A DNA stretch of 64,000 nucleotides from Planctomycetota bacterium. GTDB lineage: Bacteria; Planctomycetota; MHYJ01; JACPRB01. The stretch covers positions 965 through 64,964 of the forward strand of contig JACQVR010000065.1 in the NCBI GenBank assembly GCA_016209705.1, written 5' to 3'. The position numbers and the translations under genes are program-made. The notes beneath the pieces are model-generated. The model saw nothing but the letters and a program-made list of their open reading frames with translations. It was not told the DNA's origin and did no database searches. This document shows, in pieces, positions 320 to 23,920 of the stretch (within the stretch, counting starts at the first letter, position 1; every line of letters begins with the position of its first letter).

Positions 320-1693
320 ATGGCCGCGGGGGTCGGCGTCCTGTGGCTGGCCTGCTCGCTTCGGGCGTGGGCCGCGCAAGAGCCGGCGCAGGAGGAGACT
401 CCGAAACCGGCGCCGGAGAAGCCGACTCAAAACGAATACTTCGGCATCCCCGTATCGGGGACTTTTTCCACGAAATATCGCGGCCGCTGGACGAGCGAGG
501 ATCGGGATCAGGATCTCTTTCATTACTTGTCGGTGGATTTCGGCGATCCCGCCCGACAGGACGTGACGGGACATCTCCTACTTCGAGCCACGCAGGATGT
601 GGATGGAGATCGCAATCCCGACGAGTTCTTCGCCTTCACCGACATCACGAATACCTTCAGCAATCGGAACAACGGCCGGCTGTACTACGCTTATCTGGAT
701 GTGACGCATGCGGGGCCGCTGGATCTGGCTCGCGCCGGCAGGCAATTCCTCTATGAAACCCCGGCGCTCTTTTACTTCGACGGCTTTCGGCTCGATTCGA
801 AGCCGTGCGCGGAGGTGAAGAATCTGCAAGTGGGCCTGTACGGCGGCGTCCCGGTTCATATGTATGAATCATCGGCGGGGGGCGACCTCTTGGCCGGAGC
901 GTATCTGGAAGCGCAGCCGTGGAAGGGAGCGAAGGCGCGCGTGGACTATGCCCGGATCCGCGACGATTACCTTTTCGGCACGCAGCGGGACGACCTCTGG
1001 GGAGCGAGCCTGCGGCAATCGCTGGGGGAGATTTTGATCTTGCACGGCCAGTACACGCGCCTGGAAGCGGAAAGCCGGGACCTGCTCCTGCGCGCCAACT
1101 TCTACGAACGGAGCCTGGATCTTCGGGTCGACCTCTCGTGGTACCACCTGTACAACTCCCAGAAGATCCTTTCCATCGAAACGGATTTCTTCTTTTCGTC
1201 CGCCTTTGATTATTTCCCCTACGATCAGGCGCGGCTCCTGGTCGCCAAAGGCGTCGGAGAGTACCTGGTGGTGCAGGGGGGGGTGGACGTCCGCGAGCTC
1301 GACGACGACGCCAAGGAAGCGACGTTCAATCGCGAATTCCGGCGCTTCTATCTCACTCCGGTCTTTTCAAACTGGCCCGTCCCGGGCCTGAGCCTCAGCC
1401 TGACCGGCGAGGCGTGGGAGGTCCCGGGCACCGACAACGGCGACATCCGCACGGGGGGATTCGACGTTAGTCATGCCTACTCGCCACAACTGAAGCTCTC
1501 CGCCGGGGTGGCGTACGCGCTGTTCAAGTACGACTTCTTCGCGAATCTGGAGCGGGAGCGCGTGAGGACCGTGTACGGGAAAATCACCTACAAGGATTTG
1601 AACGGGTTCAAGCTGGACGTGGCCTATGAACTGGAACACGACAGCCTGGATGATTTCCGGACGCTGAAGGTTGGAGCGGCCTATTCGTTCTGA
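320..1693 (+). CDS. Outer-membrane beta-barrel protein, porin-like (candidate Pcc/OmbB-type porin); ~457 aa
   Basis: ATG at 320 inside the ORF track frame 5..1693; N-terminal signal peptide MAAGVGVLWLACSLRAWAAQ; alternating amphipathic beta-strand-like segments rich in Y/F/D/G; C-terminal residue F (GAAYSF), typical of OM beta-barrels; immediately followed by two multiheme cytochromes. Confidence 0.6.
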   Translation: MAAGVGVLWLACSLRAWAAQEPAQEETPKPAPEKPTQNEYFGIPVSGTFSTKYRGRWTSEDRDQDLFHYLSVDFGDPARQDVTGHLLLRATQDVDGDRNPDEFFAFTDITNTFSNRNNGRLYYAYLDVTHAGPLDLARAGRQFLYETPALFYFDGFRLDSKPCAEVKNLQVGLYGGVPVHMYESSAGGDLLAGAYLEAQPWKGAKARVDYARIRDDYLFGTQRDDLWGASLRQSLGEILILHGQYTRLEAESRDLLLRANFYERSLDLRVDLSWYHLYNSQKILSIETDFFFSSAFDYFPYDQARLLVAKGVGEYLVVQGGVDVRELDDDAKEATFNREFRRFYLTPVFSNWPVPGLSLSLTGEAWEVPGTDNGDIRTGGFDVSHAYSPQLKLSAGVAYALFKYDFFANLERERVRTVYGKITYKDLNGFKLDVAYELEHDSLDDFRTLKVGAAYSF

Positions 1694-1701
1694 AAACTCC
1701 A

Positions 1702-2718
1702 ATGATGAAGAAGGTGATGGTCGTCATGGCTGCGACGCTGGCGATTTCCCTTGGCGCCTGCGGGCTCTTGAAATTTCTCGGCCTCGAGAAGGAGCCGGAG
1801 CGGCCGTTCAGCCATCTGAAGCACGGAAAGGAGCAGGATCTGGAATGCCAGAGCTGCCACACGAAGGCCGCCAAGGGGGCTGAAGCCGGAATGCCCGTGA
1901 GCCTGAAGAAATGCATGTTGTGCCACGAAGGGATCGACGAGAAGCAGCCGCCGGAGCGGAAGCTGGCGGCGCTTTATCCGGGCGAAAAACCGGCTTGGTC
2001 GGAGGTGACGAAACTTCCGGACGAGGTGATCTTTTCGCACAAGGTCCATCTCGACAAGAAGGTGGGCTGCGCGGAATGCCACCGGGGGATCGAGGAGAGC
2101 GCGTCGATCACGGAAGCCGTACGGGTGCGAAAAGAAGCTTGCATGGGGTGTCACGCGGAGCGGCAGGCTTCCAACGAATGCTCCACGTGTCACACGGCGA
2201 TTCGGAAAGAGCGGTCCCCTCAGAGCCATGGATTGAGTTGGAAGGAAACGCACGGGAAGGTGGTGCGGCTCGGGATGGAAGATCCTCCCGAGAATCGCTG
2301 CTCGCTGTGTCATACGGAATCGACTTGCACGTCCTGCCACCGCGACGAGCCGCCGAAGAATCACACCCATTTCTGGCGCATCCAGGGACACGCGGTGGCG
2401 GTGGGGGTGGATCGGAGCTCCTGCGCGACCTGTCATCGAACGGACTTCTGCGACCGGTGCCACCAGGATACGCAGCCGCGCACGCACACGGCGGCCTGGG
2501 GCAGTCCTCGAAATTATCATTGCCTCTCCTGCCACACCCCGTTGCGTTCCGAAGGCTGCGCGCTGTGTCACAAGAGCACGCCGAGCCATGCCTTGGCGGC
2601 GCCCAAACCGGACTGGCACACGGAGGGGATGAACTGCCGGCAATGTCACGTGCCGGGGGGGAGCGGACCCATGCCCCACCCGGATAAGGGAGATAACTGC
2701 AATGCATGCCATCCCTAG
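1702..2718 (+). CDS. Multiheme cytochrome c, 13 CxxCH motifs in 338 aa, lipoprotein-type signal (LGAC)
   Basis: CxxCH counted in translation: CQSCH, CMLCH, CAECH, CMGCH, CSTCH, CSLCH, CTSCH, CATCH, CDRCH, CLSCH, CALCH, CRQCH, CNACH; N-term MMKKVMVVMAATLAISLGACG. Confidence 0.85.
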   Translation: MMKKVMVVMAATLAISLGACGLLKFLGLEKEPERPFSHLKHGKEQDLECQSCHTKAAKGAEAGMPVSLKKCMLCHEGIDEKQPPERKLAALYPGEKPAWSEVTKLPDEVIFSHKVHLDKKVGCAECHRGIEESASITEAVRVRKEACMGCHAERQASNECSTCHTAIRKERSPQSHGLSWKETHGKVVRLGMEDPPENRCSLCHTESTCTSCHRDEPPKNHTHFWRIQGHAVAVGVDRSSCATCHRTDFCDRCHQDTQPRTHTAAWGSPRNYHCLSCHTPLRSEGCALCHKSTPSHALAAPKPDWHTEGMNCRQCHVPGGSGPMPHPDKGDNCNACHP

Positions 2719-2863: not shown

Positions 2864-5731
2864 ATGAACGCAAGAAGAATCCGAGCGGTGTGGCCCCTGT
2901 TGGGTGCTGTCCTATTGCTGCCGATGTGCGGCTGCCTGGATGACGGAGACGAGGGCGTTGCGGGAGATCCCGGCGCCGCCGCGCAACCGCCCCCTACCGA
3001 TACGGTGCTCGATCCCTACAAGTCGCTGCCGGGCGTGGTCCTCTCCATCATCGACGTCGCGGGGGCGTCGGGCGCAGACGGGACGTTCCAGGCGGGCGAC
3101 ACGATTCGGGTGAAATTTACCGTCAAGAAGTCCGACGGCACGGCGCTCCCGGTTTCCGAACTGGACTCCACTTCGATTTACGTCTCGGGTCCCACCTTTA
3201 ACTATCAGCGCGTGATTCCCGCCGCCAGCAACTGGCACACGTCGACGGCATCAAACTCGGACGGCTCCTACACCTACACGTTCGCCTCCGCGATTCCTGC
3301 CACGTACGCGGCTCCCTACAACGATACGAACACCTTCGGGGCCAATGACGGCGAGCTCCAGGGCCAGCCCCTTCTGGCCGGCACATACACGATCGGCATG
3401 CAAGCCTACAAGTACTACACGGTCGAAGGGGTGAATTATCGCGACGTGGGCAACGTGACGAAGGATTTCCTTTTCGGCGGGGCGACCACGCTGGAGCCCC
3501 GCGAGGCCGTGAAACTGGAAAACTGCAATCAGTGCCACGTGACCCTTCAAATGCACGGAGGCACCCGCCGGGATACGAAGCTGTGCGTCCTCTGCCACAC
3601 CGCCGGCGCGGAAGATCGAAACGTCGCCTCGGCGGCGGGAGGCACTCCGGACGTGACCATCGAGTTCAAGGTCATGATTCACAAGATCCATAACGGATTG
3701 CATCTGCCTTCCGTGCTCGGAGTGGCCACCAATCCCAACGGCACGCGTGACTACGCCGCGACGCCGAAGCCCTACAAGATCGTCGGTTACAACAACAGCA
3801 TTCATGATTACTCCGGAGTCGGCTTCCCGGTTTGGCCCAACCTGAATGTGGCGATGCCGCGCGACCAGGGGCACGTCCCTTCAACTCCCGAGGCGTCTCT
3901 GGAAGACGAGATCCGCCGCGGCGTGACCGATTGCGCCAAGTGCCACGGAGATCCGGACGGCGATGGGCCGTTGACCGCCCCCGCGCAAGGGGACCTGGCG
4001 TACGCGCAGCCGTCTCGCCGCGCCTGCGGGGCCTGTCATGACGACATCGACTGGTCGCATCCGTACATCTCCAACGGGCAGACGATGCCATCGCAGGCGA
4101 ACGATTCGGCCTGCGTTCTGTGCCACGTGTCCACGACGAACGGCCTTGACACGGTGAATGCCCACCTGCATCCGCTCAAGAACGCCGCGCTCAATCCGGG
4201 CTTGAACGTCGACATGACGGCCGCGACCCCTTCCGTGGGAACATCGCTCGATCCGGGCGAGAAGCTCGCCGTCACCTTCTCCATCAAGGACGATACCGGA
4301 ACGGATGTCCAGCCCAGCGGGATCGGGCTCAACGTCGTCGTAGCGGGGCCGACCACCAACCGGAACTTGCTCCTGTACACGTCCATTCCCACGGACGCCT
4401 TGGGAGCCATCGCGCCCAGCTACACGTTGAATGTGCCGGAGCGCGTGGCCCTGGAGGGCCTCGGACTGGCCACAGGGGGGGTGGATGTCTTCACGACGGC
4501 CCGCGCTCCGCATTGGAACTTCACGGGCGATCTTACGAGCATCTTGGAAGGCACGTTCACCGGAACGGTCACGACCCTCGCGGCGGCGTCCACGGTGTTT
4601 CAGAACTACGTGGACGCGGTCAGTTCCACCGGGTTCGCCAATAACGACTATATCGTGATCGACCGCGGCTTGGGCACGCAAGAATACCTGCGCGTCCGGC
4701 GCGTCGAAGGGAATCGGTTGTGGTTCTCCACCCGGTACGACAGCTCGGTCTCCTATCAACCCTATCTCCGGATGGCGCACGCTTCAGGCGCCGGTGTCGA
4801 GAAAGTAACGGTCGCGACCAAGGTCGAAGGCACCCAGTGGAGTTGCAACCATACGACGGGCGAGGTCACGTTGGTCGCGGGGCAATTCACGGCCGGTAAG
4901 GCGGTGATTAGCAGCTACACCACGGACTTCGTCATGCCTTCCGTCTTCCCTCCGCCGTTGAACGACTCGCCCGATCTGGACGAAACATGGGGCGAATGGG
5001 CGGGGAAGGCGATCACGAGCGGGACGTACACGGTCGGCGTATGGGGTTCGTACACCTGGACGTACAACGCTTTCGACGACGGTGTTGCGAATCACAACAA
5101 CTCGTACCGAACGACATCCCTGCCCTCTAACAAGGACTTCCTGGTCGGTTCGGCAACCACACTGGCCCCGTACTCGCTCATCGATGTGAGCGCCTCGGGC
5201 GGCCGCTGCAACGAATGTCACAACGAGATCCTCTTCCACGGCGGCAGCCGGCGCAACGTGGAGACGTGCCTCCTATGCCACGGGACGGCCGGATCCGAGG
5301 ACTGGCCCATCTACCGCTCCCCCGTTCCGGCCAATGCGACGCCCGGCGTCACGATCAACTTCAGAACGATGCTGCACAAGATCCACATGGGGGAGGAATT
5401 GGCGAATGCCTCGACCTATACCGTGAACGGCTTTAACGGCGGCGGGCATACCTATGAAGAAGTGGTCTTTCCTGCCATGCCAGGGGCGGTCAAGCACTGC
5501 GACAAGTGCCACGGCTCCTCCGCCGCCTGGAAGGCGCCCGCCGACCGCAATCATCCAACCGAGCAATTCTCGCCCGTGCGCGCGTGGAACGCCGCGTGCG
5601 GTTCATGTCACGATTCCAGCGCTGCACAAGCGCACATCGGGCTTCAGACCTTCAGCGGCTCGGAATCGTGCGCCGTCTGCCACGGGCCGGGACGGGAGTT
5701 CAATGTCGAGTTGATGCATAAGAACCGTTAG
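2864..5731 (+). CDS. Large decaheme c-type cytochrome lipoprotein (~955 aa) with internally duplicated pentaheme modules; candidate cell-surface cytochrome
   Basis: ATG 2864 preceded by gggaggaa RBS; signal + lipobox LLLPMCGC; 10 CxxCH (CNQCH, CVLCH, CAKCH, CGACH, CVLCH, CNECH, CLLCH, CDKCH, CGSCH, CAVCH); repeated module CN(Q/E)CH..(M/F)HGG(T/S)RR..C(V/L)LCH(T/G)AG(A/S)ED and MIHKIHNG / MLHKIHMG; ORF-track 5' extension to 2702 lacks RBS/signal. Confidence 0.8.
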   Translation: MNARRIRAVWPLLGAVLLLPMCGCLDDGDEGVAGDPGAAAQPPPTDTVLDPYKSLPGVVLSIIDVAGASGADGTFQAGDTIRVKFTVKKSDGTALPVSELDSTSIYVSGPTFNYQRVIPAASNWHTSTASNSDGSYTYTFASAIPATYAAPYNDTNTFGANDGELQGQPLLAGTYTIGMQAYKYYTVEGVNYRDVGNVTKDFLFGGATTLEPREAVKLENCNQCHVTLQMHGGTRRDTKLCVLCHTAGAEDRNVASAAGGTPDVTIEFKVMIHKIHNGLHLPSVLGVATNPNGTRDYAATPKPYKIVGYNNSIHDYSGVGFPVWPNLNVAMPRDQGHVPSTPEASLEDEIRRGVTDCAKCHGDPDGDGPLTAPAQGDLAYAQPSRRACGACHDDIDWSHPYISNGQTMPSQANDSACVLCHVSTTNGLDTVNAHLHPLKNAALNPGLNVDMTAATPSVGTSLDPGEKLAVTFSIKDDTGTDVQPSGIGLNVVVAGPTTNRNLLLYTSIPTDALGAIAPSYTLNVPERVALEGLGLATGGVDVFTTARAPHWNFTGDLTSILEGTFTGTVTTLAAASTVFQNYVDAVSSTGFANNDYIVIDRGLGTQEYLRVRRVEGNRLWFSTRYDSSVSYQPYLRMAHASGAGVEKVTVATKVEGTQWSCNHTTGEVTLVAGQFTAGKAVISSYTTDFVMPSVFPPPLNDSPDLDETWGEWAGKAITSGTYTVGVWGSYTWTYNAFDDGVANHNNSYRTTSLPSNKDFLVGSATTLAPYSLIDVSASGGRCNECHNEILFHGGSRRNVETCLLCHGTAGSEDWPIYRSPVPANATPGVTINFRTMLHKIHMGEELANASTYTVNGFNGGGHTYEEVVFPAMPGAVKHCDKCHGSSAAWKAPADRNHPTEQFSPVRAWNAACGSCHDSSAAQAHIGLQTFSGSESCAVCHGPGREFNVELMHKNR

Positions 5732-5781
5732 GAGGAAACGTGGCTTGCGAGTGCCGGAAGAGATGGACGCGGCGCGGGAAC

Positions 5782-6585
5782 ATGATCCTCGCTCAGGGAC
5801 TGTTCCTCTTGGCGCTGGCGTCCATCTTCTGGGCGGCGCTGGCGCGGCGCGGGCCGGCGGCCTCGATGAGCGAAACGCCGCCGCAGGACGTGCCGTCGTT
5901 GCCCCGCGGGCCGGAATCAAGCGGCCCCGTCGCGATAGAGCCTCTTTATGAAACACGAGATCCCGCTGCGGACAAAGCGGCGCGCACCCTTCTCCGCGGC
6001 GGGACCGAAAAGGCGTATGAACGCGAGTTTCGTGAAACCGCGCGGCACCGTCCGGATCGTCTCATGTCGGATATCGAAGCAACTCTGGCGGGCGAGCATC
6101 CCGACGCGCAAAAAGTCGCGGCGTTGCGCGCCGCGTACGAAGTCGGGCGGCTCGACCCGTTTCTTCGCGTGCTCGCTTCCGAGGCGGAAAGTCAGGCGCT
6201 GAGATCCTTCGCGTTGCGGTTCCTGGCCGGCAAGTCGCCACGGACGCCCTCGGCGCGCGCGCTCCTGGCCGATTATGTGAGGATGCGCCCGCCGGAGGAG
6301 GAACAACGACGCGATGCGCTGGCCGCCCTCTTGAGATGGGCGCCCGACCGCGAGCTGGCGGGATATTGGGATCTGTTGACCTTTGAGACCGCGCCGGGGG
6401 CGGCGATCGGCGCGGCGGTGGCCCTGCGCAAGAACGGGAACAATCCGACGGCCGCCGCGGCGCTTCAATACCTGGCGACCGCGCATCCTTCCGCCGAGGT
6501 CCGTCATCGAGCCGCAGAGGAACGTTCGGGCCGGTACTGTCCCGAACATGCCCAAGAGGCGGCGGACCCAGAAGGAGGGTATTGA
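5782..6585 (+). CDS. Membrane-anchored HEAT-repeat-like protein (hypothetical)
   Basis: N-terminal TM MILAQGLFLLALASIFWAAL; C-terminal HEAT/PBS-lyase-like repeats (AAIGAAVALRKNGNNPTAAAALQYLATAHPSAEVRHRAAE). Confidence 0.4.
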   Translation: MILAQGLFLLALASIFWAALARRGPAASMSETPPQDVPSLPRGPESSGPVAIEPLYETRDPAADKAARTLLRGGTEKAYEREFRETARHRPDRLMSDIEATLAGEHPDAQKVAALRAAYEVGRLDPFLRVLASEAESQALRSFALRFLAGKSPRTPSARALLADYVRMRPPEEEQRRDALAALLRWAPDRELAGYWDLLTFETAPGAAIGAAVALRKNGNNPTAAAALQYLATAHPSAEVRHRAAEERSGRYCPEHAQEAADPEGGY

Positions 6586-6667: not shown

Positions 6668-6683
6668 TGGCAAGAAGCTTGCA
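6668..6683 (+). promoter_or_regulatory. Putative sigma-54 (-24/-12) promoter TGGCAA-N5-TTGCA upstream of tetraheme cytochrome/ResB/CcsA/ACIII-like operon
   Basis: tggcaagaagcttgca matches TGGCAC-N5-TTGCW with one mismatch; the predicted TSS falls ~2 nt before ATG 6696, which conflicts with the GGAGA RBS at -9. Confidence 0.4.
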
Positions 6684-6695: not shown

Positions 6696-7367
6696 ATGAA
6701 AAACAAGATTCCGGGCGGTGGGGCGGTGGCGGCGCTCCTGATCGCGATCGGCGCGGCCATGGCGGCGCCTCAAGGGCAGGATGCTGGGAACCGGTACATC
6801 GGGGTCGACAAGTGCAAGAACTGCCATGAGGCCAAGACCAAGGGAAGCCAGTTCTCGCGCTGGAAGGAGACGAAGCACGCCAAAGCCTTCGAGCTTCTCA
6901 CCGGTGATGAGGCCAAGAAAGTCGCCCAAGCCAAAGGAATCTCGGATCCGCACAAGAGCGAGAAATGCCTGAAATGCCATGTCACGGCGTTCGGCCAGCC
7001 CGCCGAACGGCTCGCCAAGGGATTCGAGCCGACCCACGGCATCCAATGCGAAAGCTGCCACGGGCCGGGCGAGAAGCATTTCAAGGTGCGCCTGGCGGCC
7101 GCGGAGGATGAGGAAGAGGGGTATGTCGAAATCCCTGACGGCGAGATCATCAAGAGCCCTCCTCTCAAAACCTGTTTGGGGTGCCACAACGAGGAGAGCC
7201 CGCAGTTCAAGCCCTTCTGCTTCAAGAAGCGGTTCAGCGAGATCCAGCATTGGGACCCTCGCAAGGAGCGAAGCGAGGCGGAAATCAAGGCCGCGCAATG
7301 CGCCTGTCCGGCGGATGGTTGCACCTGCAAGCAAGGGGAATGCGGTGAACTTCACGAGAAAAAGTGA
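6696..7367 (+). CDS. Tetraheme cytochrome c, secreted, with C-terminal Cys-rich tail
   Basis: Signal peptide MKNKIPGGGAVAALLIAIGAAMAAPQ; CKNCH, CLKCH, CESCH, CLGCH; C-term CACPADGCTCKQGECGELH. Confidence 0.8.
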   Translation: MKNKIPGGGAVAALLIAIGAAMAAPQGQDAGNRYIGVDKCKNCHEAKTKGSQFSRWKETKHAKAFELLTGDEAKKVAQAKGISDPHKSEKCLKCHVTAFGQPAERLAKGFEPTHGIQCESCHGPGEKHFKVRLAAAEDEEEGYVEIPDGEIIKSPPLKTCLGCHNEESPQFKPFCFKKRFSEIQHWDPRKERSEAEIKAAQCACPADGCTCKQGECGELHEKK

Positions 7368-9321
7368 TCACCTGAACGCGCCCGGCACGTTGCACGTCCC
7401 GCGGCTGGGACGTTCGTTGGGGCTCGCCGCGGCGCTTTGGTCGGCGCTGACGGTGATCGGGCACCTGGGCGCCGGCGATCTGTTCCGCCACATGTCGGGA
7501 CAGGCCCTTGCGGTCGGAGCGTTCGGAGGCGCCGGCGTTTTCTTTTGGATGATTCGAAAGGGCCTCTTCCGCTGGTTGACGTCGCCTTCCTTCGCCGTCT
7601 CGGCGTTTGCCTTTCTACTTCTGGCCGCCGCGGTGGGAACCGTGGTGCCCCAAGGGATGCCGGCCGAGCAATTTTCGGGACGCTACGGCGCCTGGTCGGG
7701 CGCGCTGCGGTGGGGTGGGGTGCATGACATTTCCCATTCGGTTCCCTTCCGCGGGTTTCTGGTCCTGCTGGCGATTTCGCTGGCCCTGGTGGCGATCAAG
7801 CGGAAAGCGTGGCGCCTCCCGGAATGGGGATTTCTCCTGTCTCACGCGGGTGTCATCGTCATCCTCACGGGCGGTCTGATCGGGAGCGTCTTCGGAATGA
7901 AAGGGTTCATCGACATTCACGAAGGTCAGACGGTCGAGACCGTGGCGCGGCAAGGGGAAGCGCGGCCGACGAGCGGCGTTCCCCTGGGATTCGGCTTGCG
8001 CCTGGACGATTTCGAGATCGAGAGGTATCCGCAACAATACCGCCTTTACGTGTACGCCTTGGCGGGTGACGACGCTCGTGTCGTGGGCTCGCACGACGTC
8101 CGCGTGGACTCCGAATGGCGCCCGGCCGGAGGGGCGAAGGAACAGGTCCGGGTCGTCGCCGTCTATCCCGACTTCACGCTGCGGACCGAGTTGCGCGAGA
8201 CGCCGGAGGGCGGGCCAGCGCTGGTTCTGCGGCTGGAGGAATGGGATGGCCGCACCTTCCCGGTGACTCTTCTGGCCGGAGTCGAGGGCCGCGAGACGCT
8301 CGCCTTGCGCCGGCCTCCCGCGCGGATTCGCTTCCTGTGGGAGGAGGATCCCGCCGCGCTGGGCGCCAAGCCGGAGGAGCACCTCGTCACGTTCGAGGCG
8401 GACGGCGCGTCTCCTCAAGAGACGCACGTCGAACCGGGCGGAAGCTACGCACTGGGAGAGGCTCGCTATCAGCTTGCGGTACTGTCCTATTTCCCGGACT
8501 TCGCCTATGACTCGGAGCGGCGCGAGGGTTACACGCGCTCGTCCACGCCGGGGAATCCCGCGCTGCGCGTCTCGCTAAGGGACTCGCGGTCGGGTGACGT
8601 TGAAGAGCGCTGGCTGTTCGCGAAGATGCCGGATTATGGGGGAACGCACGGTCGCGGCTCCTCCGGAGTGAAGCTCTCGTATCGGCACGTGCCGGCGCGC
8701 GAACCCATGGAACGGGAAATCGTCGTCGCCGGCCGCGCGCGCCAGGTCGTCGAATATCAACGCGCGGTCGAGACCTCGCGAACCGCGCTGCCGCCTGACG
8801 GCGAGCCGTTGGCCGAGGGATTGGATGTGACGGTCGAGCGCCTCGTGGAACGGGCGGAGGAGCTTCATTTTCCCGCGACGCGGTCGGACGTGTGGCGGCG
8901 CCCTGCGGTGGGACTTGAAATCCGCTCGGCCCGCGGAACGCAGCGAATGCTCTTGAAGGCGGGCGTCTCCGAGGCGATCCGACTTTCCGATGGGAAGACC
9001 GTTCTGGTTCTGGATCGGAAGCCGGACGACGTCAAGGCGTTCCGCAGCCGCGTCACGGTCCTCGACAAGGGAGCCGCGGCGCGCCGGGCGACGCTGTCCG
9101 TCAACCATCCGCTCTCGTACGGCGGCTATCGATTCTATCAGTCGAACTATCGGGCGGAGGATCCCACGTACTCGGGGCTCCTCGTGGTCAAGGATCCCGG
9201 GCTGGGCGTCGTGTATGCGGGATTCGGGATGATCTGTGCCGGAGTGATGTTCATCTTCTACGTGCGTCCGGCGATCCTGCGTGCGCGGATCCTCGCCCGA
9301 AGAAAGGTGCTGGAAGGATGA
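7315..9321 (+). CDS. resB: Cytochrome c biogenesis protein ResB/Ccs1 (System II); start uncertain (ATG 7315, GTG 7342 or ATG 7492)
   Basis: ResB hallmark first TM LTSPSFAVSAFAFLLLAAAVGTVVPQG, large periplasmic domain, C-terminal TM; stop overlaps ccsA start (ATGA). The ORF-track 5' extension to 6979 overlaps the cytochrome gene and is rejected. Confidence 0.75.
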   Translation: MVAPASKGNAVNFTRKSDHLNAPGTLHVPRLGRSLGLAAALWSALTVIGHLGAGDLFRHMSGQALAVGAFGGAGVFFWMIRKGLFRWLTSPSFAVSAFAFLLLAAAVGTVVPQGMPAEQFSGRYGAWSGALRWGGVHDISHSVPFRGFLVLLAISLALVAIKRKAWRLPEWGFLLSHAGVIVILTGGLIGSVFGMKGFIDIHEGQTVETVARQGEARPTSGVPLGFGLRLDDFEIERYPQQYRLYVYALAGDDARVVGSHDVRVDSEWRPAGGAKEQVRVVAVYPDFTLRTELRETPEGGPALVLRLEEWDGRTFPVTLLAGVEGRETLALRRPPARIRFLWEEDPAALGAKPEEHLVTFEADGASPQETHVEPGGSYALGEARYQLAVLSYFPDFAYDSERREGYTRSSTPGNPALRVSLRDSRSGDVEERWLFAKMPDYGGTHGRGSSGVKLSYRHVPAREPMEREIVVAGRARQVVEYQRAVETSRTALPPDGEPLAEGLDVTVERLVERAEELHFPATRSDVWRRPAVGLEIRSARGTQRMLLKAGVSEAIRLSDGKTVLVLDRKPDDVKAFRSRVTVLDKGAAARRATLSVNHPLSYGGYRFYQSNYRAEDPTYSGLLVVKDPGLGVVYAGFGMICAGVMFIFYVRPAILRARILARRKVLEG

Positions 9322-13867: not shown

Positions 13868-13872
13868 GAGCC

Positions 13873-15207
13873 ATGGAAATCGAGGAGCCCAGGTCGCCGA
13901 GGTTCACGTTCGAGGTGCAACCGATCTTCGAGCCGCTGCGGAGAACAGGGGCGGGATTTTATTGGGCGGCCGCGGCTCTGCTGGCCGTGGTGGCCTTTGG
14001 GGTTTACGCCTATGTGCGGCAGTATGTTTACGGCCTGGGCGTGACCGGCATGAACCGGCCCATGTACTGGGGCGTGTACATGGCGAACTTCGTCTTCTTC
14101 ATCGGCATCTCGCACGCGGGTACGCTCATTTCGGCGATCTTGCGGGTATCGGGAGCGGAGTGGAGGCGGCCGGTGACCCGCTGCGCCGAGGTGATCACCG
14201 TATTCGCCCTCATCTTCGGCGCCCTCTCGGTAATCCTGGATTTGGGCCGTCCCGACCGGCTCCTGAACGTGCTGCGGCATGGCCGCCTTCAGTCGCCCAT
14301 CCTGTGGGACGTTTGCTGCATCAGCACCTACCTCACGGGAAGCCTCATCTATCTTTATCTCCCGCTCATCCCGGACATGGCGATCTTGAGGGACCGAAAG
14401 GAAGGGCGAGTGTGGCTCTATCGGTTCCTCGCCATCGGTTACCGCGGGACGGCGGGGCAAAAGAAGCGCCTCGAATTCTGGATCGCCGTCATGGCCATCC
14501 TGATCATCCCGATCGCCGTCTCGGTGCACACGGTCGTCTCCTACATCTTCGCCACGACGCTCCAGCCCGGCTGGCACAGCACGATCTTCGGCCCCTATTT
14601 CGTCGTGGGCGCGATTTTCTCGGGGTTGGCGGCGCTCATGATCGCCATGGCGATCATCCGTCGCGGATTCCGTCTCGAAGGGGTCCTCAAGGACATTCAC
14701 TTCAACAATCTGGGACTGATCCTGCTGGTGATGACCTGTCTCATGATCTACTTCACGTTCAACATCTATCTGGTCGAGATCACCGGCAACGAACCTTTGA
14801 TCATGGCGTCGGTGCTGGCCAAGGTCAACGGACCGTATGCCGTGCCGTTTTGGGGGATGATCGTCGGCGGCATGATCGTCCCGGCCATCATTCTGGCTTT
14901 TCCCAAGGGACGCACCGTGACCGGGTGCGTCATCGCCTCGGTCTTGATTCTCGTGGCGATGTGGGTGGAGCGGTTCCTGATCGTAGTCCCCACGCTGATT
15001 CATCCGCGCCTTCCCTGGACCGCAGGTTCCTACGCCCCCACCTGGGTCGAATGGGCGATCACGGCCGGGTGCCTGGCCGCCTTCGCGTTGCTGTACCTGC
15101 TGTTCACCAAGGTGTTCCCGATCGTCTCGATCTGGGAGGTCCAGGAGGGCATCGATGAAGCCATTCCCAAGGTGCGGGAACGGTTCAAGCACTACATGCC
15201 GGACTGA
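13873..15207 (+). CDS. NrfD/PsrC-family polytopic membrane quinone-interacting subunit (ActC-like)
   Basis: Multiple TM helices; NrfD-family pattern; RBS aggag before ATG 13873 (alternative ATG 13855 overlaps upstream stop). Confidence 0.75.
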   Translation: MEIEEPRSPRFTFEVQPIFEPLRRTGAGFYWAAAALLAVVAFGVYAYVRQYVYGLGVTGMNRPMYWGVYMANFVFFIGISHAGTLISAILRVSGAEWRRPVTRCAEVITVFALIFGALSVILDLGRPDRLLNVLRHGRLQSPILWDVCCISTYLTGSLIYLYLPLIPDMAILRDRKEGRVWLYRFLAIGYRGTAGQKKRLEFWIAVMAILIIPIAVSVHTVVSYIFATTLQPGWHSTIFGPYFVVGAIFSGLAALMIAMAIIRRGFRLEGVLKDIHFNNLGLILLVMTCLMIYFTFNIYLVEITGNEPLIMASVLAKVNGPYAVPFWGMIVGGMIVPAIILAFPKGRTVTGCVIASVLILVAMWVERFLIVVPTLIHPRLPWTAGSYAPTWVEWAITAGCLAAFALLYLLFTKVFPIVSIWEVQEGIDEAIPKVRERFKHYMPD

Positions 15208-16887: not shown

Positions 16888-16900
16888 ATCTGAATAAAAC

Positions 16901-18334
16901 ATGGAAACGGAAGCGGCGATCCTGATCGTGGATGACGAGGAAGGCACGCGCGCCTCGCTCGCGCGCGCTCTCGATCAGCCGGGGTATCGGGTGCGCGGAG
17001 TGGAGTCCGCCGAAGCGGCGCTGGCCGCTCTGGAGAAAGAATCGTTCGACGTCATCCTCTGCGACATCCGCCTTGGAGGCATGGATGGGTTGGAACTCCA
17101 GAAGCGGATTCGCGCGGATCATCCCGACGTTCCCGTGGTGATGATCACGGCGTACGCCGCCGTCGAAACCGCGGTGCGCGCGCTGAAGCAGGGCGCCTAT
17201 GATTATCTGGCTAAACCTTTTTCCGCGGAAGAGGCGCGCAGCGCCGTCCACCGCGCCCTGGAGAGCCGCCGCCTGCGGCTGGAAAACGACTCGCTCCGCG
17301 AAGTGCTTCGCGGGTTCGCGGGCGAAGTGTGGGTCGGGAATTCCGCGCCGATACGGCGGCTTTATGAGGAGGCGGCCAAAGTGGCGCGCAGCAACGCCAC
17401 CGTCTTCATCAGCGGCGAAAGCGGAACCGGCAAGGAGATCCTGGCGCGATACCTGCACGCGCGCAGTCTTCGGGAGCGAGGGATCTTCGTGGCGCTCAAC
17501 TGCGCGGCCCTTCCGGAGAACCTGGCCGACTCGCAGATGTTCGGCCATGTGCGCGGGGCGTTCACCGGAGCGGTGGCGGATCAGCGCGGCCATCTCGAGC
17601 TGGCTCACGGGGGCACGCTCTTCCTGGATGAGATCGCGGACCTCAAGCTCGACGTCCAAGCCAAGCTGCTGAGGGTGCTGGAGGAACACCACTTTCGGCG
17701 GCTGGGTTCCGAGCGGGAGATCTCCGTGGATGTGCGGGTCCTCGCCGCCGCCCAGCGGAGTCCCGAACAGTTGGTCAAGGAGGGGAAGCTGCGGGAGGAC
17801 CTTTACTATCGGCTCGGGGCGATCCATCTCGAGGTCCCGCCGCTGCGCGAACGGCCGGGCGACATCGCGGATCTGGCGCTGCACTTCCTCGCGCGCTTCT
17901 CGCAGGAGCTCAAGAAGCCCGTCGAAGGATTGGAGCCGGAAGCGCTGAGTTTGCTCGAGAAGTATCCCTGGCCGGGGAACGTGCGGGAGCTCAAGAACGT
18001 GATGGAACGGGCGGCGCTCTTCGTCCAGGCGGGGAGCCGCGTCGGGATCGCGGATTTTCCGGAAAAGATCCGCCGGACTCCGGGCACGGCGCTCTTCGTG
18101 GTGGAGGCTCCTCAGCCGCTCCCGTTGCGGGAATTGTCCCGGCGCTACATCCGCCACGTGTTGGATTTGTGCGACGGCAACCAGGCGAAGGCCGCGCGCC
18201 TCCTGGAGATTTCCCCTTCCACGCTCTGGAGACATTTTTCAAAGACCGAGGCGGCCGCCTTGAAAGATGCCAAGGAGGCTACGCCCGGCTCGCGGGACAA
18301 GGTGCGGACGCCGCATCGTCCGGTGGGTCCATGA
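16901..18334 (+). CDS. Sigma-54-dependent response regulator (NtrC family: receiver + AAA+ + HTH)
   Basis: ILIVDDEEGTRASLARAL...CDIRLGGMDG receiver; [15 protein letters not shown] Walker A; GAFTGA motif; ESELFGH-like; C-terminal HTH. Confidence 0.85.
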   Translation: METEAAILIVDDEEGTRASLARALDQPGYRVRGVESAEAALAALEKESFDVILCDIRLGGMDGLELQKRIRADHPDVPVVMITAYAAVETAVRALKQGAYDYLAKPFSAEEARSAVHRALESRRLRLENDSLREVLRGFAGEVWVGNSAPIRRLYEEAAKVARSNATVFISGESGTGKEILARYLHARSLRERGIFVALNCAALPENLADSQMFGHVRGAFTGAVADQRGHLELAHGGTLFLDEIADLKLDVQAKLLRVLEEHHFRRLGSEREISVDVRVLAAAQRSPEQLVKEGKLREDLYYRLGAIHLEVPPLRERPGDIADLALHFLARFSQELKKPVEGLEPEALSLLEKYPWPGNVRELKNVMERAALFVQAGSRVGIADFPEKIRRTPGTALFVVEAPQPLPLRELSRRYIRHVLDLCDGNQAKAARLLEISPSTLWRHFSKTEAAALKDAKEATPGSRDKVRTPHRPVGP

Positions 18335-18524: not shown

Positions 18525-18540
18525 TGGCAAACGTTTTGCT
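18525..18540 (+). promoter_or_regulatory. Sigma-54 promoter TGGCAA-N5-TTGCT ~57 nt upstream of decaheme cytochrome gene
   Basis: tggcaaacgttttgct matches TGGCAC-N5-TTGCW (1 mismatch); immediately downstream of a sigma-54 activator gene; leader ~46 nt with RBS ggaaggag. Confidence 0.6.
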
Positions 18541-18596: not shown

Positions 18597-20714
18597 ATGG
18601 GAAGATCCAAGTATTTCCTTCTGCTTGTGGCGATGTTGCCTCTATTGCCGGCGGCGTCCTGCGGCGGGGAGGACGGAGCCGCAGGCGCTCCGGGCGAGCC
18701 AGGATCGGGACTGACAGGCCCATATCGGGAATTGAGCGCCTCCCTGGCCATCTCGCAGCCGGCCAATGGAACCCATTTTGTGATGGGCGAGCAGGCGGTG
18801 GTCACGGTCATTGTGAAAGACCAATATGACAAAGCATTCTCCCTGAGCGACCTTTCCCAGCTCAGCCTTTATGTATATGGTCCGCAAGAAACGACGAAGA
18901 CCATGACGGCGGTGAATCTGCTCAACGCCTCCACGGATCGTTCCCAAAGGCCGCATCATTACATTGATCTGCTCACGAATCCTGAGGCGCAGTTCGCGAG
19001 CGGGGTCGTGACCTATGCACTCCGGCCGGTCTCCGACGAGGAGCCGGGGACATACATCGTCACCATGCGCGCTGTCCTCAAGGATGCGCCGCTTGAGCAA
19101 GCGATGCCATGCGTCGAGTTCCAGCTCGGAACCGCTATTGCGGAGACTCAGATCATAGATAAGGAGAAGTGCGCCAAATGCCACAAGGGCGCCGCCAGCG
19201 GTCAGTTCTACTTCCACCACGTGGATCCTCGTCAAGTGGGTCAGAGCGGAAGCCCCTCGATAGACTCGCTGCCGGTGATGACCTGCAAGAGCTGTCACAA
19301 CACGGAGGGCTATGCGGCGTACCGCGATCCCGCCAATCCGGACAACCGCATCCCGGATCCCATTGTGAAGCGGGTGCACGGGGTTCACATGGGCAAGCAC
19401 TTGGAGAGCGCCGCCAATCAGACGGTATTTGCGGACTATCTGGACGTGGAGTTTCCCGCTAATGTCAAGAACTGCACCGCCTGTCACTCCGATGACCGCT
19501 GGAAAACCAAGCCGTCGCAGCTTGCCTGCGGTGCCTGCCACGACAATATCTGGTTCGGCGATCCGGCCGCCATGCCGGAGACCGCGGAAGCGCACCCCGG
19601 CGGGCAGCAGGCCGACGATTCCTTGTGTGCGAGCTGCCACCCTGCCGACATCGGCGGAAGCAAGCCGGTGGCGGTGGCGCACCAGATCGAGCCGCCGGCG
19701 TTCCAGAATACGGTGGAACTGAGCATGACTCCTCCGGCCAACGGGGAGTACTACGTGGCCGGTGAAACGCCTCAGGTGACGATCACGATCCGGGATGCGG
19801 CCAGCGGCGCGACGATCAATCCGGCCGCCATTGTCGAGCCGGCCGATTCGCAAGCCGTGCAATCCTTCGAGTGGAGACGGGCGAACTTGTTTGTGTCCGG
19901 ACCCAGAAAGCGCACGATGCCCGTCCTTACAACGGAGGCCATCAACCCCGATCCCACCCACTCGTACGCCAACAATGACTTCCGCGTACGAATCGACCCG
20001 GCCAATGAGGATCTGAGGGTGACACGGTCTTCGACCGCGATCACCTATCAATTGGCGGATGTGGCGGATTTAGAGCCCGGCACGTATACCGCCTTCGTCG
20101 AGATCATGCCGGCTGCTCCTCTCGGCGGCTGGGGTCTGATCAACTTCCAAGTGAAGACCGCGACGGAAGAGCCCATGGTCGCGACCAACTGCATCGATTG
20201 TCACGACGACGCTCGAATGCACGGCAGTTACTTCGCGGTGCAATTCAAGCCCGACATCTGCAAGAACTGCCACGACTATGAGCGTCAGATGCCGGACCGG
20301 ATCACGTGGACCGACCGCAACGCAGGATACGGCGCCGCTCCCCTGGCCAGACGGGTCCACGGCGTCCACTTCGGGCATTACCTCGACAAGCCGGAAGAAG
20401 TGCACGCGACTTACGATTTCTCAGGAGTCATCTTCCCGCAGGACGTGAGAAACTGCGTCAAGTGCCACTCGGAAACGGATGCGTGGAAAACCGAACCGTC
20501 GCGGGTGGCCTGTCTTGCGTGCCACGACAAAGACGCGGCCATTACCCACGCCACGGTAAATACATTGGATGCGACGCCTGCCGACCCGTGGAACGGCGAT
20601 GAGGTGGAAAGTTGCAAAGTATGCCACGGAGCCGGGCGAGAATTCGCTCCCGACAAGGTGCACAATATCTGGGATCCCTATAAGCCGCCCTATCCACGAG
20701 AACCGGCCGAGTAA
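18597..20714 (+). CDS. Second decaheme c-type cytochrome lipoprotein (~705 aa), structural paralog of 2864..5731 with duplicated pentaheme modules
   Basis: ATG 18597 after ggaaggag RBS; signal + lipobox LLPAASCGG; 10 CxxCH (CAKCH, CKSCH, CTACH, CGACH, CASCH, CIDCH, CKNCH, CVKCH, CLACH, CKVCH); repeated KRVHGVHMGKHL / RRVHGVHFGHYL. Confidence 0.8.
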   Translation: MGRSKYFLLLVAMLPLLPAASCGGEDGAAGAPGEPGSGLTGPYRELSASLAISQPANGTHFVMGEQAVVTVIVKDQYDKAFSLSDLSQLSLYVYGPQETTKTMTAVNLLNASTDRSQRPHHYIDLLTNPEAQFASGVVTYALRPVSDEEPGTYIVTMRAVLKDAPLEQAMPCVEFQLGTAIAETQIIDKEKCAKCHKGAASGQFYFHHVDPRQVGQSGSPSIDSLPVMTCKSCHNTEGYAAYRDPANPDNRIPDPIVKRVHGVHMGKHLESAANQTVFADYLDVEFPANVKNCTACHSDDRWKTKPSQLACGACHDNIWFGDPAAMPETAEAHPGGQQADDSLCASCHPADIGGSKPVAVAHQIEPPAFQNTVELSMTPPANGEYYVAGETPQVTITIRDAASGATINPAAIVEPADSQAVQSFEWRRANLFVSGPRKRTMPVLTTEAINPDPTHSYANNDFRVRIDPANEDLRVTRSSTAITYQLADVADLEPGTYTAFVEIMPAAPLGGWGLINFQVKTATEEPMVATNCIDCHDDARMHGSYFAVQFKPDICKNCHDYERQMPDRITWTDRNAGYGAAPLARRVHGVHFGHYLDKPEEVHATYDFSGVIFPQDVRNCVKCHSETDAWKTEPSRVACLACHDKDAAITHATVNTLDATPADPWNGDEVESCKVCHGAGREFAPDKVHNIWDPYKPPYPREPAE

Positions 20715-20721: not shown

Positions 20722-20754
20722 AAAAAAAAGCCCGTCGTGAAGACGGGCTTTTTT
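20722..20754. terminator. Rho-independent (bidirectional) terminator: A-tract, GCCCGTC stem, GTGAA loop, GACGGGC, T6
   Basis: aaaaaaaagcccgtcgtgaagacgggctttttt read directly after cytochrome stop. Confidence 0.8.
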
Positions 20755-21804: not shown

Positions 21805-21847
21805 CTATCGGGAATAGAAGATGAAGAAACAAGAAAGGGGGCGTGCC

Positions 21848-22132
21848 ATGACCGCCATGCAAAAGGGAACCCCGTGGGTCGTGGGCCTGCTGACGTTCGT
21901 GTTCGGCCTGAGCATCGGACTGAGCTGGTATACGTACGGCTATCTGGATTGGGCGACCGTGAGGAAGATGGCCATGATGCTCATCCCGCTGCTGGCCGCA
22001 GCCGTGGTCGTGATGCTGTGGCCGGACAAGGAGGAAAAAGAAAAGAAGGAACGCCCCGACCTTCGTGCTCGGCTCGCCGGGCGGAGACGCCGTGAACTTC
22101 AGGAGGTGGGCAAGGACAAGGAAAGGAGCTAG
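21848..22132 (+). CDS. Small two-TM membrane protein with lysine/glutamate-rich tail (hypothetical)
   Basis: ATG 21848 with aaggggg RBS (ORF track start 21821 also possible); two hydrophobic helices. Confidence 0.45.
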   Translation: MTAMQKGTPWVVGLLTFVFGLSIGLSWYTYGYLDWATVRKMAMMLIPLLAAAVVVMLWPDKEEKEKKERPDLRARLAGRRRRELQEVGKDKERS

Positions 22133-22134: not shown

Positions 22135-22314
22135 ATGCCGGTTCTTGCGGAACGTCCCGTTCGCAAAGCGCCCCGCCGGAAGGCGCCTCCGCCGGTCCGG
22201 GAAGGCAAGGCTTTCTACATCGTGACCACGGTGTTGGGCGTCCTCATGTTCCTGCTCGCGATCGGATCGGTGGGGATGATGGTGGCCGCCCAACTGCTCC
22301 TGATCAACTGGTAA
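22135..22314 (+). CDS. 59-aa single-TM protein (hypothetical), below ORF-track length cutoff
   Basis: ATG 22135 after aaaggag RBS; MPVLAERPVRKAPRRKAPPPVREGKAFYIVTTVLGVLMFLLAIGSVGMMVAAQLLLINW*. Confidence 0.45.
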   Translation: MPVLAERPVRKAPRRKAPPPVREGKAFYIVTTVLGVLMFLLAIGSVGMMVAAQLLLINW

Positions 22315-22327
22315 GAGGATCTCATCC

Positions 22328-23920
22328 ATGAGCGTATCGACAGTGACGGATGTGGTCAGGACGCTGGAGCTGGAAGACCGGACGAATGACGGAGCCGCAG
22401 GCGGAGGTCCGCCGGAGAGCCGGATCGGAGTCGGCCGCTTCGGAACCCGCTGGTGGGCCTTTTCCGCCATGCTGGCGGCCGTCGTGACGGCCAGCGTTGC
22501 GGCGTATGCCCGACAACTTGCCCGCGGCTTGGAAGTCACCGGACTGGGAAACATCGGGTCCGGCGGCGCGCCGTGGGGGCTGTACATCACGTTCGACGTC
22601 TACTTCGTCGGGGTGAGTTTCGCCGGGATCACGCTGGCGGCGCTCATCCGCCTTTTCGACCTCTCCAAACTGCGGCCCGTTTCCCGCATGGCGGAACTCC
22701 TGACGATCGTCTCGCTGATGATGGGCGCCTTGAGCGTCATCGTCGATTGCGGGCGCCCCCTGGAGGCGCTCGTGAACATTCCTCGCTTCGCCCGAACGGC
22801 CTCGCCCTTCTTCGGAACGTTCAGCTTGGTCGTCGGCGGATATCTCTTCGCCAGCCTGGTGTACTTCTTCCTGTCCGGACGGTCCGACGCCGCCGCGTGC
22901 GCTCAGCCGAAGGCGTGGCTGCGCGGTTTTCATCGCCTCTGGGCTTCGGGGTACCAAGGATCTCCGGCCGAAAAGCGGCGCCATCATTGCGCTTCGTTCT
23001 GGCTCGCCTTGACGATCCTGCCGCTCCTGGTGACCGCCCATTCCACGCTGGGCTTCATCTTCGGCATCCAAGGGGGGCGGCCGGGATGGTTCAGCGCGCT
23101 CCAGGGACCCAGTTTCGTGGTGATGGCGGGCCTGTCCGGTACGGGGTTGCTCATCGTGATGGCGGCGGTCCTGAGACGCAGCCTGCGCCTCGAGGCGCAT
23201 TACGGGCCGCCCGTTTTCCGCTGGCTCGGAAACCTCCTGATGGTCCTGACGATGATCTACCTCTACTTCATGATCGCCGAGGAATTGACGGCGACTTACG
23301 CATCACCGTATGCCGAATCAAAAGTGGCGCACGCGAGGACGCTGGGCGTCTACGCGCCTCTCTATTGGACGATCGTGGCCTTTCTGGCGGGTACGGTCGC
23401 CATACTCTTCATCCAATTCGTGCACGGCGGAGCGTCCATCGCGTGGACCGCGGCCGCGGGCCTCTTGGGGAATGTGGCGGCGGTGCTCAAGCGGTACCTG
23501 CTCATCGTGTCGCCGCAGACGCATGGGCTTTTCGTCCCCACGGAGGGGAGCTATGCGCCGAGCGGCGTGGAGATCGCCGTCATCCTGGGATTGCTGGCTT
23601 TGGGAGCGCTCTTCATCACGATATTCGTCAAGGTGTTTCCCATCGTTCCCCTCGCAGGAAGCGGGCACCCCGCGGAGCCGGATCCCACCGAGCCGCGGCG
23701 AAAGGGCCCCAGTCGATGCCTCATGTTCTGGGCGATGCTGGCAGTGGGGGTGGGGTTGGCCGCGATAGGATTCCTGGGATCGTCTCGGTTCGGCACGGAA
23801 CCGTATCTCGATCCCGTGATCCCTTACAGCCCGGTTCTCTTCATCGCGGGAGTGATGCTCGCGTTCACTTCGGCGATCGTTTATGAAACGGCGCCCTTGA
23901 GAATCCCGACTCGACGCTGA
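22328..23920 (+). CDS. Second NrfD/PsrC-family polytopic membrane protein (ActF-like?), 530 aa with C-terminal extension
   Basis: Paralogous to 13873..15207 (e.g. FDVYFVGVSFAGITLAALIRL vs ANFVFFIGISHAGTLISAILRV; SVIVDCGRP vs SVILDLGRP). Confidence 0.7.
   Translation: MSVSTVTDVVRTLELEDRTNDGAAGGGPPESRIGVGRFGTRWWAFSAMLAAVVTASVAAYARQLARGLEVTGLGNIGSGGAPWGLYITFDVYFVGVSFAGITLAALIRLFDLSKLRPVSRMAELLTIVSLMMGALSVIVDCGRPLEALVNIPRFARTASPFFGTFSLVVGGYLFASLVYFFLSGRSDAAACAQPKAWLRGFHRLWASGYQGSPAEKRRHHCASFWLALTILPLLVTAHSTLGFIFGIQGGRPGWFSALQGPSFVVMAGLSGTGLLIVMAAVLRRSLRLEAHYGPPVFRWLGNLLMVLTMIYLYFMIAEELTATYASPYAESKVAHARTLGVYAPLYWTIVAFLAGTVAILFIQFVHGGASIAWTAAAGLLGNVAAVLKRYLLIVSPQTHGLFVPTEGSYAPSGVEIAVILGLLALGALFITIFVKVFPIVPLAGSGHPAEPDPTEPRRKGPSRCLMFWAMLAVGVGLAAIGFLGSSRFGTEPYLDPVIPYSPVLFIAGVMLAFTSAIVYETAPLRIPTRR

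Follow-up and report, generated by a model that had tools for sequence, protein, structure and literature searches.

A predicted trans-envelope electron conduit of separable modules in an uncultured planctomycete

Background

The locus analyzed here is a ~24-kb cluster at positions 320-23920 of a 64-kb window (the whole stretch of contig JACQVR010000065.1 that was studied) from an uncultured groundwater planctomycete. Its gene content makes it reasonably probable that it specifies a planctomycete trans-envelope electron conduit composed of separable modules, in which the outer-membrane part follows the three-part logic of MtrCAB of Shewanella and the inner-membrane part is, by its sequence affinities, a hybrid of alternative complex III (ACIII) and the Qrc complex.

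The described systems closest to these parts are of two kinds. Among the outer-membrane conduits, MtrCAB combines a barrel of 26 strands (MtrB), a heme-dense wire with ten hemes (MtrA) and a decaheme lipoprotein of the OmcA/MtrC family, with CymA as inner-membrane partner and OmcA as an accessory decaheme. The Geobacter Pcc (OmbB-OmaB-OmcB) is encoded in the order porin, periplasmic multiheme, outer lipoprotein multiheme, with 8 and 12 hemes in the two cytochromes and a transcription factor associated with the cluster. Systems of the DmsEFAB type illustrate a modular use of porin-cytochrome pairs, in which MtrAB-like pairs serve different terminal partners. On the side of the quinone pool, ACIII (ActABCDEF) is a quinol oxidase in which the MopB and iron-sulfur (FeS) parts are fused in ActB. 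Qrc (QrcABCD) of sulfate reducers is encoded by four separate genes for a hexaheme cytochrome, a MopB-like subunit, an FeS subunit and an NrfD protein, and a Qrc-type inner-membrane link has been proposed in an extracellular electron chain of syntrophic sulfate reducers (PMC10553843).

Outer-membrane components

The first three genes of the cluster (Table 1) encode a β-barrel, a 13-heme c-type cytochrome and a decaheme lipoprotein. The decaheme scores 269 bits against the curated OmcA/MtrC family hidden Markov model (HMM; TIGR03507, cutoff 209.3) and matches PF22113 twice (142.7 bits, cutoff 30). It displays the four-domain order of that family, with ten CxxCH motifs in two pentaheme blocks (residues 221-417 and 782-936) and β-rich domains between them, and its orthologs retain both the ten hemes and the lipobox. 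It differs from its Shewanella counterpart in its length of 955 residues and its enlarged middle β region, and neither this nor the second decaheme of the locus has the spare cysteine pair for the domain III disulfide. We propose it as the putative surface terminus of electron transfer; its sequence has a lipobox-like N-terminus.

The 13-heme cytochrome has one heme per 26 residues. Its first five hemes resemble ActA/QrcA and the pentaheme cytochrome of the cluster itself. Five orthologs have exactly 13 CxxCH motifs in 336-343 residues and an N-terminal lipobox-like cysteine, and in every case the gene lies 3' of the barrel gene. It falls outside the MtrA/DmsE family (TIGR03508), scoring 22.9 bits against a cutoff of 192.2 and carrying 13 hemes rather than ten. 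The barrel likewise lies outside the MtrB/PioB family (TIGR03509), with neither a sequence match nor a specific structural match to MtrB, and no Pfam or NCBIfam family matched it. A search with a profile built from 37 homologs recovered 1077 clusters at 50% identity, with E <= 1e-30 for 567, so the protein belongs to a large unnamed family. Its AlphaFold2 (AF2) model (predicted local distance difference test score 84.9, predicted template modeling score 0.79) folds as a barrel with 22 long strands. We propose the 13-heme protein as a wire across the outer membrane and the barrel as its sheath.

In contrast to MtrCAB, the porin gene comes first, an order which, together with a porin of ~440-460 residues and an associated transcription factor, is shared with the Geobacter Pcc. 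This likeness is one of gene order and size: the hemes number 13 and 10 rather than 8 and 12, and the outer cytochrome is of the MtrC family.

Inner-membrane quinone module

The inner-membrane partner is not CymA. Four consecutive genes instead encode a pentaheme cytochrome, a MopB-family protein, an FeS protein and an NrfD-family protein, an arrangement of separate genes (those for MopB and FeS overlap by 4 nt) which is that of Qrc rather than of ACIII. Further features shared with Qrc are the predicted periplasmic orientation with TAT export, by twin-arginine translocation (TAT) and a MopB subunit devoid of the molybdenum ligand. The scores against the four NCBIfam equivalog models are, however, all below cutoff (QrcA 103.5 bits against 180, QrcB 274.8 against 440, QrcC 288.5 against 400, and QrcD 45.8 against 570), the cytochrome is pentaheme rather than hexaheme, and no sulfate-reduction context is seen in the window.

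The affinities of three of the subunits lie with ACIII. Among solved structures the pentaheme cytochrome is nearest to ActA, the FeS protein aligns with residues 795-1023 of ActB (197.5 bits), that is, with its C-terminus, and the NrfD protein is nearest to ActC. As in ACIII, a second NrfD paralog is encoded and the MopB part appears to be cofactor-less, but the second paralog is separated from the module by 7 kb and is more like ActC than ActF. Searches of the cluster open reading frames (ORFs) detected neither an ActD nor an ActE homolog, nor a class I cytochrome c domain.

The MopB subunit stands apart, with ArrA (290 bits) and PsrA (232 bits) as its nearest solved structures and ActB far behind (53-59 bits). 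In the alignment the molybdenum-ligand cysteine of ArrA/PsrA is replaced by threonine. The fourth FS0 cysteine (CP[RK]GQ) is replaced by the glycine of an invariant GPKG, so that three of the four FS0 cysteines are kept, and both losses hold across the family. The subunit is thus probably non-catalytic. A working polysulfide, thiosulfate or arsenate reductase was considered as a candidate and rejected, given that the top HMM hits are far under their cutoffs and both cysteines are absent family-wide. With all Qrc equivalog scores below cutoff and the subunits closest to ACIII and ArrA/PsrA, the module is best described at the level of sequence as an ACIII/Qrc hybrid belonging to neither family. 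The NrfD protein is the proposed quinol/quinone site and the pentaheme cytochrome the proposed electron exit.

Conservation of gene order

About 90 related loci (designated here by L numbers) were read and scored by tblastn, the genome scan having been seeded with the MopB alignment. The full order of barrel, 13-heme cytochrome, decaheme, c554/ResB/CcsA, pentaheme cytochrome, MopB, FeS and NrfD recurs in L001/L016, L006/L008/L029, L012, L015, L018, L019 and L021, representing at least 8 species-level planctomycete genomes. The initial annotation had called the arrangement unusual and had suggested synteny as a check on its reading; the comparison shows that the layout is typical of the clade and adds weight to a link between the modules. 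The porin-first order of barrel, 13-heme cytochrome and outer lipoprotein is retained in L001, L005 and L006. The MopB subunit is 55-70% identical within Planctomycetota, ~60% in Acidobacteriota, and 36-47% in Thermodesulfobacteriota, Chloroflexota, Nitrospinota and others.

The partners of the outer-membrane pair are exchangeable. In L005 and L007 a NapC/NirT gene lies beside the barrel and 13-heme genes and the ACIII/Qrc-like module is missing there. This is the expected substitution if the job of the neighbor is quinol oxidation, and together with the shared gene order it strengthens the functional link between the modules. In L010 (1034-6406) and in the first cluster of L006 (2315-9565), the genes after the pair encode, instead of a decaheme, a 4-heme lipoprotein, a MopB protein of 1050 aa exported by TAT and an FeS protein of 188 aa, with a NarJ-like chaperone called only in L006. 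These sets recall DmsEFAB, though their enzyme is of the Nar type with a NarJ-like chaperone, and this molybdoenzyme variant is absent from the window. The presence of barrel and 13-heme cytochrome in all these arrangements, with partners that vary, identifies this pair as the constant unit.

Published surveys have pointed out multiheme clusters, or an mtrC gene by itself, in Planctomycetota. Suarez et al. drew a porin-cytochrome conduit next to an NrfD-type cluster for the planctomycete metagenome-assembled genome (MAG) OFTM248 (PMC10732223), which corresponds to our L026, where barrel and 13-heme genes directly precede the module. We found no description of the conserved arrangement in the literature beyond that figure. 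One locus labeled 'Fibrobacteria bacterium' (L013, JADGQO010000036.1) has a MopB of 66% identity and the same kinase type, and may reflect a binning or taxonomic mislabel or a transfer of the module.

Gene set and heme attachment

The high GC content of the DNA generates many spurious ORFs, and the gene set was therefore fixed by translation, heme-motif counts and family searches (Pfam, NCBIfam). All 42 CxxCH motifs in ORFs of the window fall in five multiheme ORFs between 1.7 and 20.7 kb; no other ORF in the window has two or more, and the remaining 43 kb contain no multiheme ORF. Every named gene of the cluster is on the + strand. The initial annotation had listed essentially the same genes at the same coordinates, and the tiers it described, namely a quinone module, periplasmic cytochromes, a porin-cytochrome pair and lipoprotein decahemes, are all encoded. 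The same is true of the dedicated heme-attachment machinery and of the kinase/NtrC-type pair with a sigma-54-type box 5' of a decaheme gene. Its description of the region as contiguous is slightly generous: between 20.7 and 21.8 kb there are a terminator, one small ORF on the minus strand and ~700 bp in which no gene is convincing. The window begins 319 bp 5' of the first gene, and the left border of the cluster thus lies outside it.

Table 1. Features of the cluster (positions in the window)
Position	Strand	Feature	Remarks
320..1693	+	Outer-membrane β-barrel protein	457 aa; Sec signal; C-terminal Phe
1702..2718	+	13-heme c-type cytochrome	338 aa; lipobox-like LGAC
2864..5731	+	First decaheme lipoprotein, OmcA/MtrC family	955 aa; hemes 5+5; PMCGC lipobox-like N-terminus
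5782..6585	+	Protein with N-terminal hydrophobic segment	267 aa; no family match; poorly conserved
6668..6682	+	Sigma-54-type -24/-12 box TGGCAAGAAGCTTGC	Intergenic; ends 13 nt 5' of c554 ATG
6696..7367	+	Tetraheme c554-type periplasmic cytochrome	PF13435, 62.9 bits
~7345..9321	+	ResB/CcsB, System II	PF05140, 129 bits; start uncertain, 7315-7492
9318..10130	+	CcsA/ResC heme handling, System II	PF01578, 135.7 bits
10117..10632	+	Pentaheme cytochrome, ActA/QrcA-like	Best solved relatives: ACIII ActA chains, 80 bits
10629..13049	+	MopB-family subunit	TAT motif, then LAGC lipobox
13046..13867	+	Four-cluster-type FeS subunit	Like ActB C-terminal domain and QrcC
13855..15207	+	NrfD-family membrane subunit, ActC-like	R. 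marinus ActC 6F0K_C, 231 bits, E 3e-67
15235..16785	+	Sensor histidine kinase	Transmembrane helix, periplasmic domain, transmembrane helix, HAMP, HisKA, HATPase
16901..18334	+	NtrC-type sigma-54 activator	REC, AAA+ with GAFTGA, HTH_8; PF00158, 217 bits; PF00072, 114 bits
18342..18383		Perfect hairpin with 20-bp stem	3' of regulator gene; probable operon end
18525..18539	+	Sigma-54-type -24/-12 box TGGCAAACGTTTTGC	Intergenic; 58 nt 5' of second decaheme ATG
18597..20714	+	Second decaheme, MtrC-like lipoprotein	705 aa; AASC lipobox-like; monocistronic
20722..20754		Intrinsic terminator	A-run, GC stem, T-run; bidirectional form; 3' of second decaheme gene
21821..22132	+	tm103, two-helix membrane protein	103 aa; 41-51% identity in L010, L012, L020, L028, upstream of NrfD2
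22135..22314	+	Single-helix membrane protein	59 aa; no family above threshold
22328..23920	+	NrfD2, second NrfD-family subunit	530 aa; among solved structures, related to ActC chains and not to ActF

The ResB/CcsB and CcsA/ResC pair constitutes a System II biogenesis set, with CcsA scoring 185.2 bits against TIGR03144, just under the cutoff of 187.6. The tetraheme c554-type cytochrome encoded upstream is the proposed periplasmic shuttle. Its last 25 residues form a cysteine-rich tail, CACPADGCTCKQGECG, in which orthologs keep a C..GECG core and vary in the number of CxC units, and which may be a metal-binding appendage.

Second decaheme and NrfD2

The separately encoded second decaheme, which recalls OmcA as an accessory to MtrCAB, is only ~26% identical to the first. 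It matches PF22113 (94 bits, cutoff 30), and its 164.7 bits to TIGR03507 remain below the cutoff of 209.3. Its hemes again form two pentaheme blocks (192-344 and 532-673). Foldseek places MtrC (6QYC) at the top of its matches, ten orders ahead of the next (E 3e-15 over 569 columns), with a template modeling score of only 0.23-0.26, which is attributable to poor modeling of the heme domains. As only the β domains at 45-185 and 370-525 are predicted with confidence by AF2, this match is supportive rather than decisive.

Homologs 55-66% identical to it occur in MAGs labeled as Chloroflexota, Dehalococcoidia, Verrucomicrobiota, Nitrospirae, Schekmanbacteria and Planctomycetota. They are stand-alone genes in unrelated contexts (L090 and L091 among them); the surroundings of one are small ORFs, with a HerA/TrwB-like ATPase next to it. 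No tm103 and NrfD2 genes were found downstream of the close homolog in L090. In L010 and L020 the regulator gene is directly followed by tm103 and NrfD2 with no decaheme at that position, so that the segment at 18.4-21.8 kb is an insertion particular to this genome. Judged from these comparisons the second decaheme is a probable lateral acquisition. The distribution of this orphan family across phyla, Chloroflexota included, suggests frequent lateral transfer, and it may be a surface cytochrome that lineages exchange.

NrfD2 and the first NrfD protein share 34% identity. A gene of its type (54-56% identity) directly follows the FeS gene in L001 and L008 and is the sole NrfD type there, suggesting that NrfD2 is an alternative or a second subunit of the module.

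Regulation and transcription units

A histidine kinase and an NtrC-type activator are encoded after NrfD, and a kinase-regulator pair also follows NrfD in L009, L010, L012, L020 and L028. In the periplasmic domain of the kinase (residues ~88-105) all orthologs examined share a C-x4-C-H-G-Y-x-K-[RQ]-P motif, whose C-x4-C-H core is kept in a Nitrospinae protein at 22% identity. This motif may be a covalent c-heme site, in which case the kinase would be a periplasmic redox sensor.

The activator has the domains of an NtrC-type regulator, and -24/-12 boxes precede its proposed target genes. The window has 4 matches to the pattern TGGCA-N6-TTGC, where 0.36 would be expected (11-fold). Two of the four lie in the cluster, before the c554 and second decaheme genes. 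An equivalent box lies 40 nt upstream of c554 in L001, and in L006 a box precedes the barrel gene. We infer that the regulator drives these promoters. From the boxes together with the hairpin and the terminator, the likely transcription units are 320-6585, 6696-18334 (including kinase and activator) and 18597-20714 alone. The cited terminators were read directly from the sequence; a sigma-70 and terminator consensus scan gave results at or below chance level. The 115-nt gap between kinase and regulator genes contains an inverted repeat (16810-16887, 25-nt arms, 84% complementary) that may be an attenuator or processing site. No rpoN gene is present in the window.

Proposed electron path and its alternatives

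In the proposed path, the ACIII/Qrc-hybrid complex of ActA-like pentaheme, degenerate lipid-anchored MopB, ActB2/QrcC-like FeS and ActC-like NrfD subunits would exchange electrons with the menaquinone pool, with NrfD2 as an alternative or additional subunit that comes with two small membrane proteins. Electrons would pass to periplasmic cytochromes, with the tetraheme c554 as shuttle, then through the outer membrane along the 13-heme lipoprotein sheathed by the 22-strand barrel of a new family. The last step would be their transfer by the OmcA/MtrC-family decaheme to acceptors outside the cell, for example Fe(III)/Mn(IV) minerals, humics or a partner cell. Heme attachment would be the task of ResB and CcsA. 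The kinase, possibly a c-heme redox sensor, and the activator would drive two sigma-54 promoters, of which that before c554 precedes the c554-to-regulator operon and would result in positive autoregulation, and the other would drive the separately acquired MtrC-like decaheme.

Several points weigh against this proposal. The function of every member of the cluster is a prediction from sequence, and the heme domains of the decaheme AF2 model are of low confidence. We know of no lipoprotein surface-export route in Planctomycetota. The c554 box, if real, implies a near-leaderless transcript, as it ends only 13 nt from the start codon, and when the DNA 5' of the sigma-54 boxes in the window, L001 and L006 was compared for a common activator-binding motif, only trivial 8-mers were recovered. 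The four-gene quinone module occurs in many phyla without a conduit, often with a kinase and sigma-54 activator of its own, and is thus a general module not specific to extracellular electron transfer. Similarly, the association of the barrel and 13-heme pair with a Nar-type molybdoenzyme in L010 and L006 indicates that the pair does not always serve mineral reduction.

Inward flow is a rival to be taken seriously, given that Qrc is described as a complex that reduces quinone with electrons from the periplasm and has been proposed as the point where electrons from a partner enter (PMC10553843). With the same hardware, the electron source would then be Fe(II), a cathode-like mineral or a syntrophic partner, and the module would work as a cytochrome c:menaquinone reductase. 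The four-gene order and the similarities to the QrcA, QrcB and QrcC HMMs fit this direction, as does the coupling of the pair to a Nar-type reductase in L010 and L006, which would suit electron uptake for nitrate reduction. However, three of the four subunits are nearer to the quinol-oxidizing ACIII than to Qrc, the QrcD score being far under its cutoff, and the locus has two MtrC-type decahemes, unlike the oxidizing conduits MtoAB and PioAB, which to our knowledge lack such a surface protein. The ACIII-like character of the three subunits and the two decahemes make outward flow more likely on these sequence affinities, and we hold inward flow to be rather unlikely. A different rival would treat the modules as independent neighbors, the quinone module being a general quinol:cytochrome c oxidoreductase for periplasmic or inner-membrane reductases, the multihemes being periplasmic, and the co-location reflecting shared heme attachment and regulation. 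The occurrence of the module alone in Acidobacteriota, Thermodesulfobacteriota, Chloroflexota and some Planctomycetota is in line with this, and Suarez et al. took comparable clusters of the NrfD type to encode complexes of nitrogen or oxygen respiration (PMC10732223). Mere neighborhood would leave unaccounted for the recurrence of a multi-gene order in at least 8 planctomycete genomes, the substitution of NapC/NirT at this position in L005 and L007, the strict adjacency of barrel and 13-heme genes, and the lipoprotein signals on both decahemes. Taken together, these observations render it distinctly unlikely.

The initial annotation had further suggested that the region could be a horizontally transferable island for extracellular electron transfer, which as a rival reading would mean recent acquisition of all 24 kb. 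The shuffling of modules between genomes is compatible with this, as is the second decaheme family with its high identity across phyla and its one homolog beside a HerA/TrwB-like ATPase. The skew in composition that was to be looked for is, however, absent: in codon usage the 13 cluster genes and 23 flank genes have a centroid distance of 0.286 against an average of 0.284 for random partitions (p = 0.46), and the GC content of the cluster (0.632) is like that of the flanks (0.650). No tRNA was found in the window, and there is no integrase, transposase or direct repeat at the cluster border nor any mobility gene adjoining the cluster on the side within the window; the only transposase, a DDE type at 58460-59641 (- strand), is ~35 kb away. 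The orthologous clusters diverge in step within Planctomycetota (55-70% for MopB). Hence the island idea is unsupported and very improbable for the region as a whole, the second decaheme cassette being a partial exception, and the recurrence of the layout in related uncultured planctomycetes points to a lineage trait.

Returning to the proposed conduit, we tentatively raise the possibility, more speculative than the conduit itself, that the barrel and 13-heme pair is an unnamed, widespread trans-outer-membrane electron 'socket', its barrel family comprising ~1000 clusters at 50% identity. Its outside plugs would be MtrC-type decahemes or Nar-type molybdoenzymes, and its inside plugs NapC/NirT or an ACIII/Qrc-like complex. 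The ArrA/PsrA-like MopB of the latter, with three FS0 cysteines and no molybdenum ligand, may be an evolutionary intermediate between catalytic Psr/Arr and the cofactor-less scaffolds of ACIII and Qrc. The switch would be a kinase sensing periplasmic redox state through a covalent C-x4-C-H heme.

Non-anammox members of the Planctomycetota occur in high abundance in groundwater, sediments and soils, and are not counted as metal-respiring or electroactive. If the proposed conduit is correct, a large uncultured group would join those that take part in the cycling of iron, manganese and humics. Porin-cytochrome conduits would gain a fourth family unrelated in sequence to the others, and a complex of the ACIII/Qrc type would serve as inner-membrane quinol dehydrogenase for extracellular electron transfer. 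The barrel, 13-heme wire and MtrC-like cap would offer a compact parts list for heterologous testing.

Other features of the window

The 267-aa protein encoded after the first decaheme is replaced at the same position in L006 and L008 by a 232-aa protein with no detectable similarity, and has weak tblastn matches in L018 and L021. Just 5' of the barrel gene lies an imperfect inverted repeat (157-257) with 36-nt arms, 81% complementary, built of GAGTCGCG-like units, in which no promoter motif and no sigma-54 box was recognized. No Rfam family was found in the window.

To the right of the cluster are genes for an ABC exporter, a hemerythrin protein and a dynamin-like GTPase, together with a membrane operon of the Mrp/Nuo type. 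This operon (32861-40891, - strand) contains three Proton_antipo_M proteins and a NuoK-like protein, has a GC content near 0.70 with a strong AT skew, and is preceded by the third sigma-54 box of the window, a perfect TGGCACGCCGCTTGC at 40876-40890, and by a second sigma-54 activator gene at 40919-42271. The fourth box, TGGCACGTGCGTTGC at 30606-30620 (- strand), is upstream of minus-strand ORFs near a hemerythrin/CMD-domain gene (29178-29978). The DDE transposase and several small ORFs adjoin a DUF4143 protein (56116-57441) and are unrelated to the cluster.

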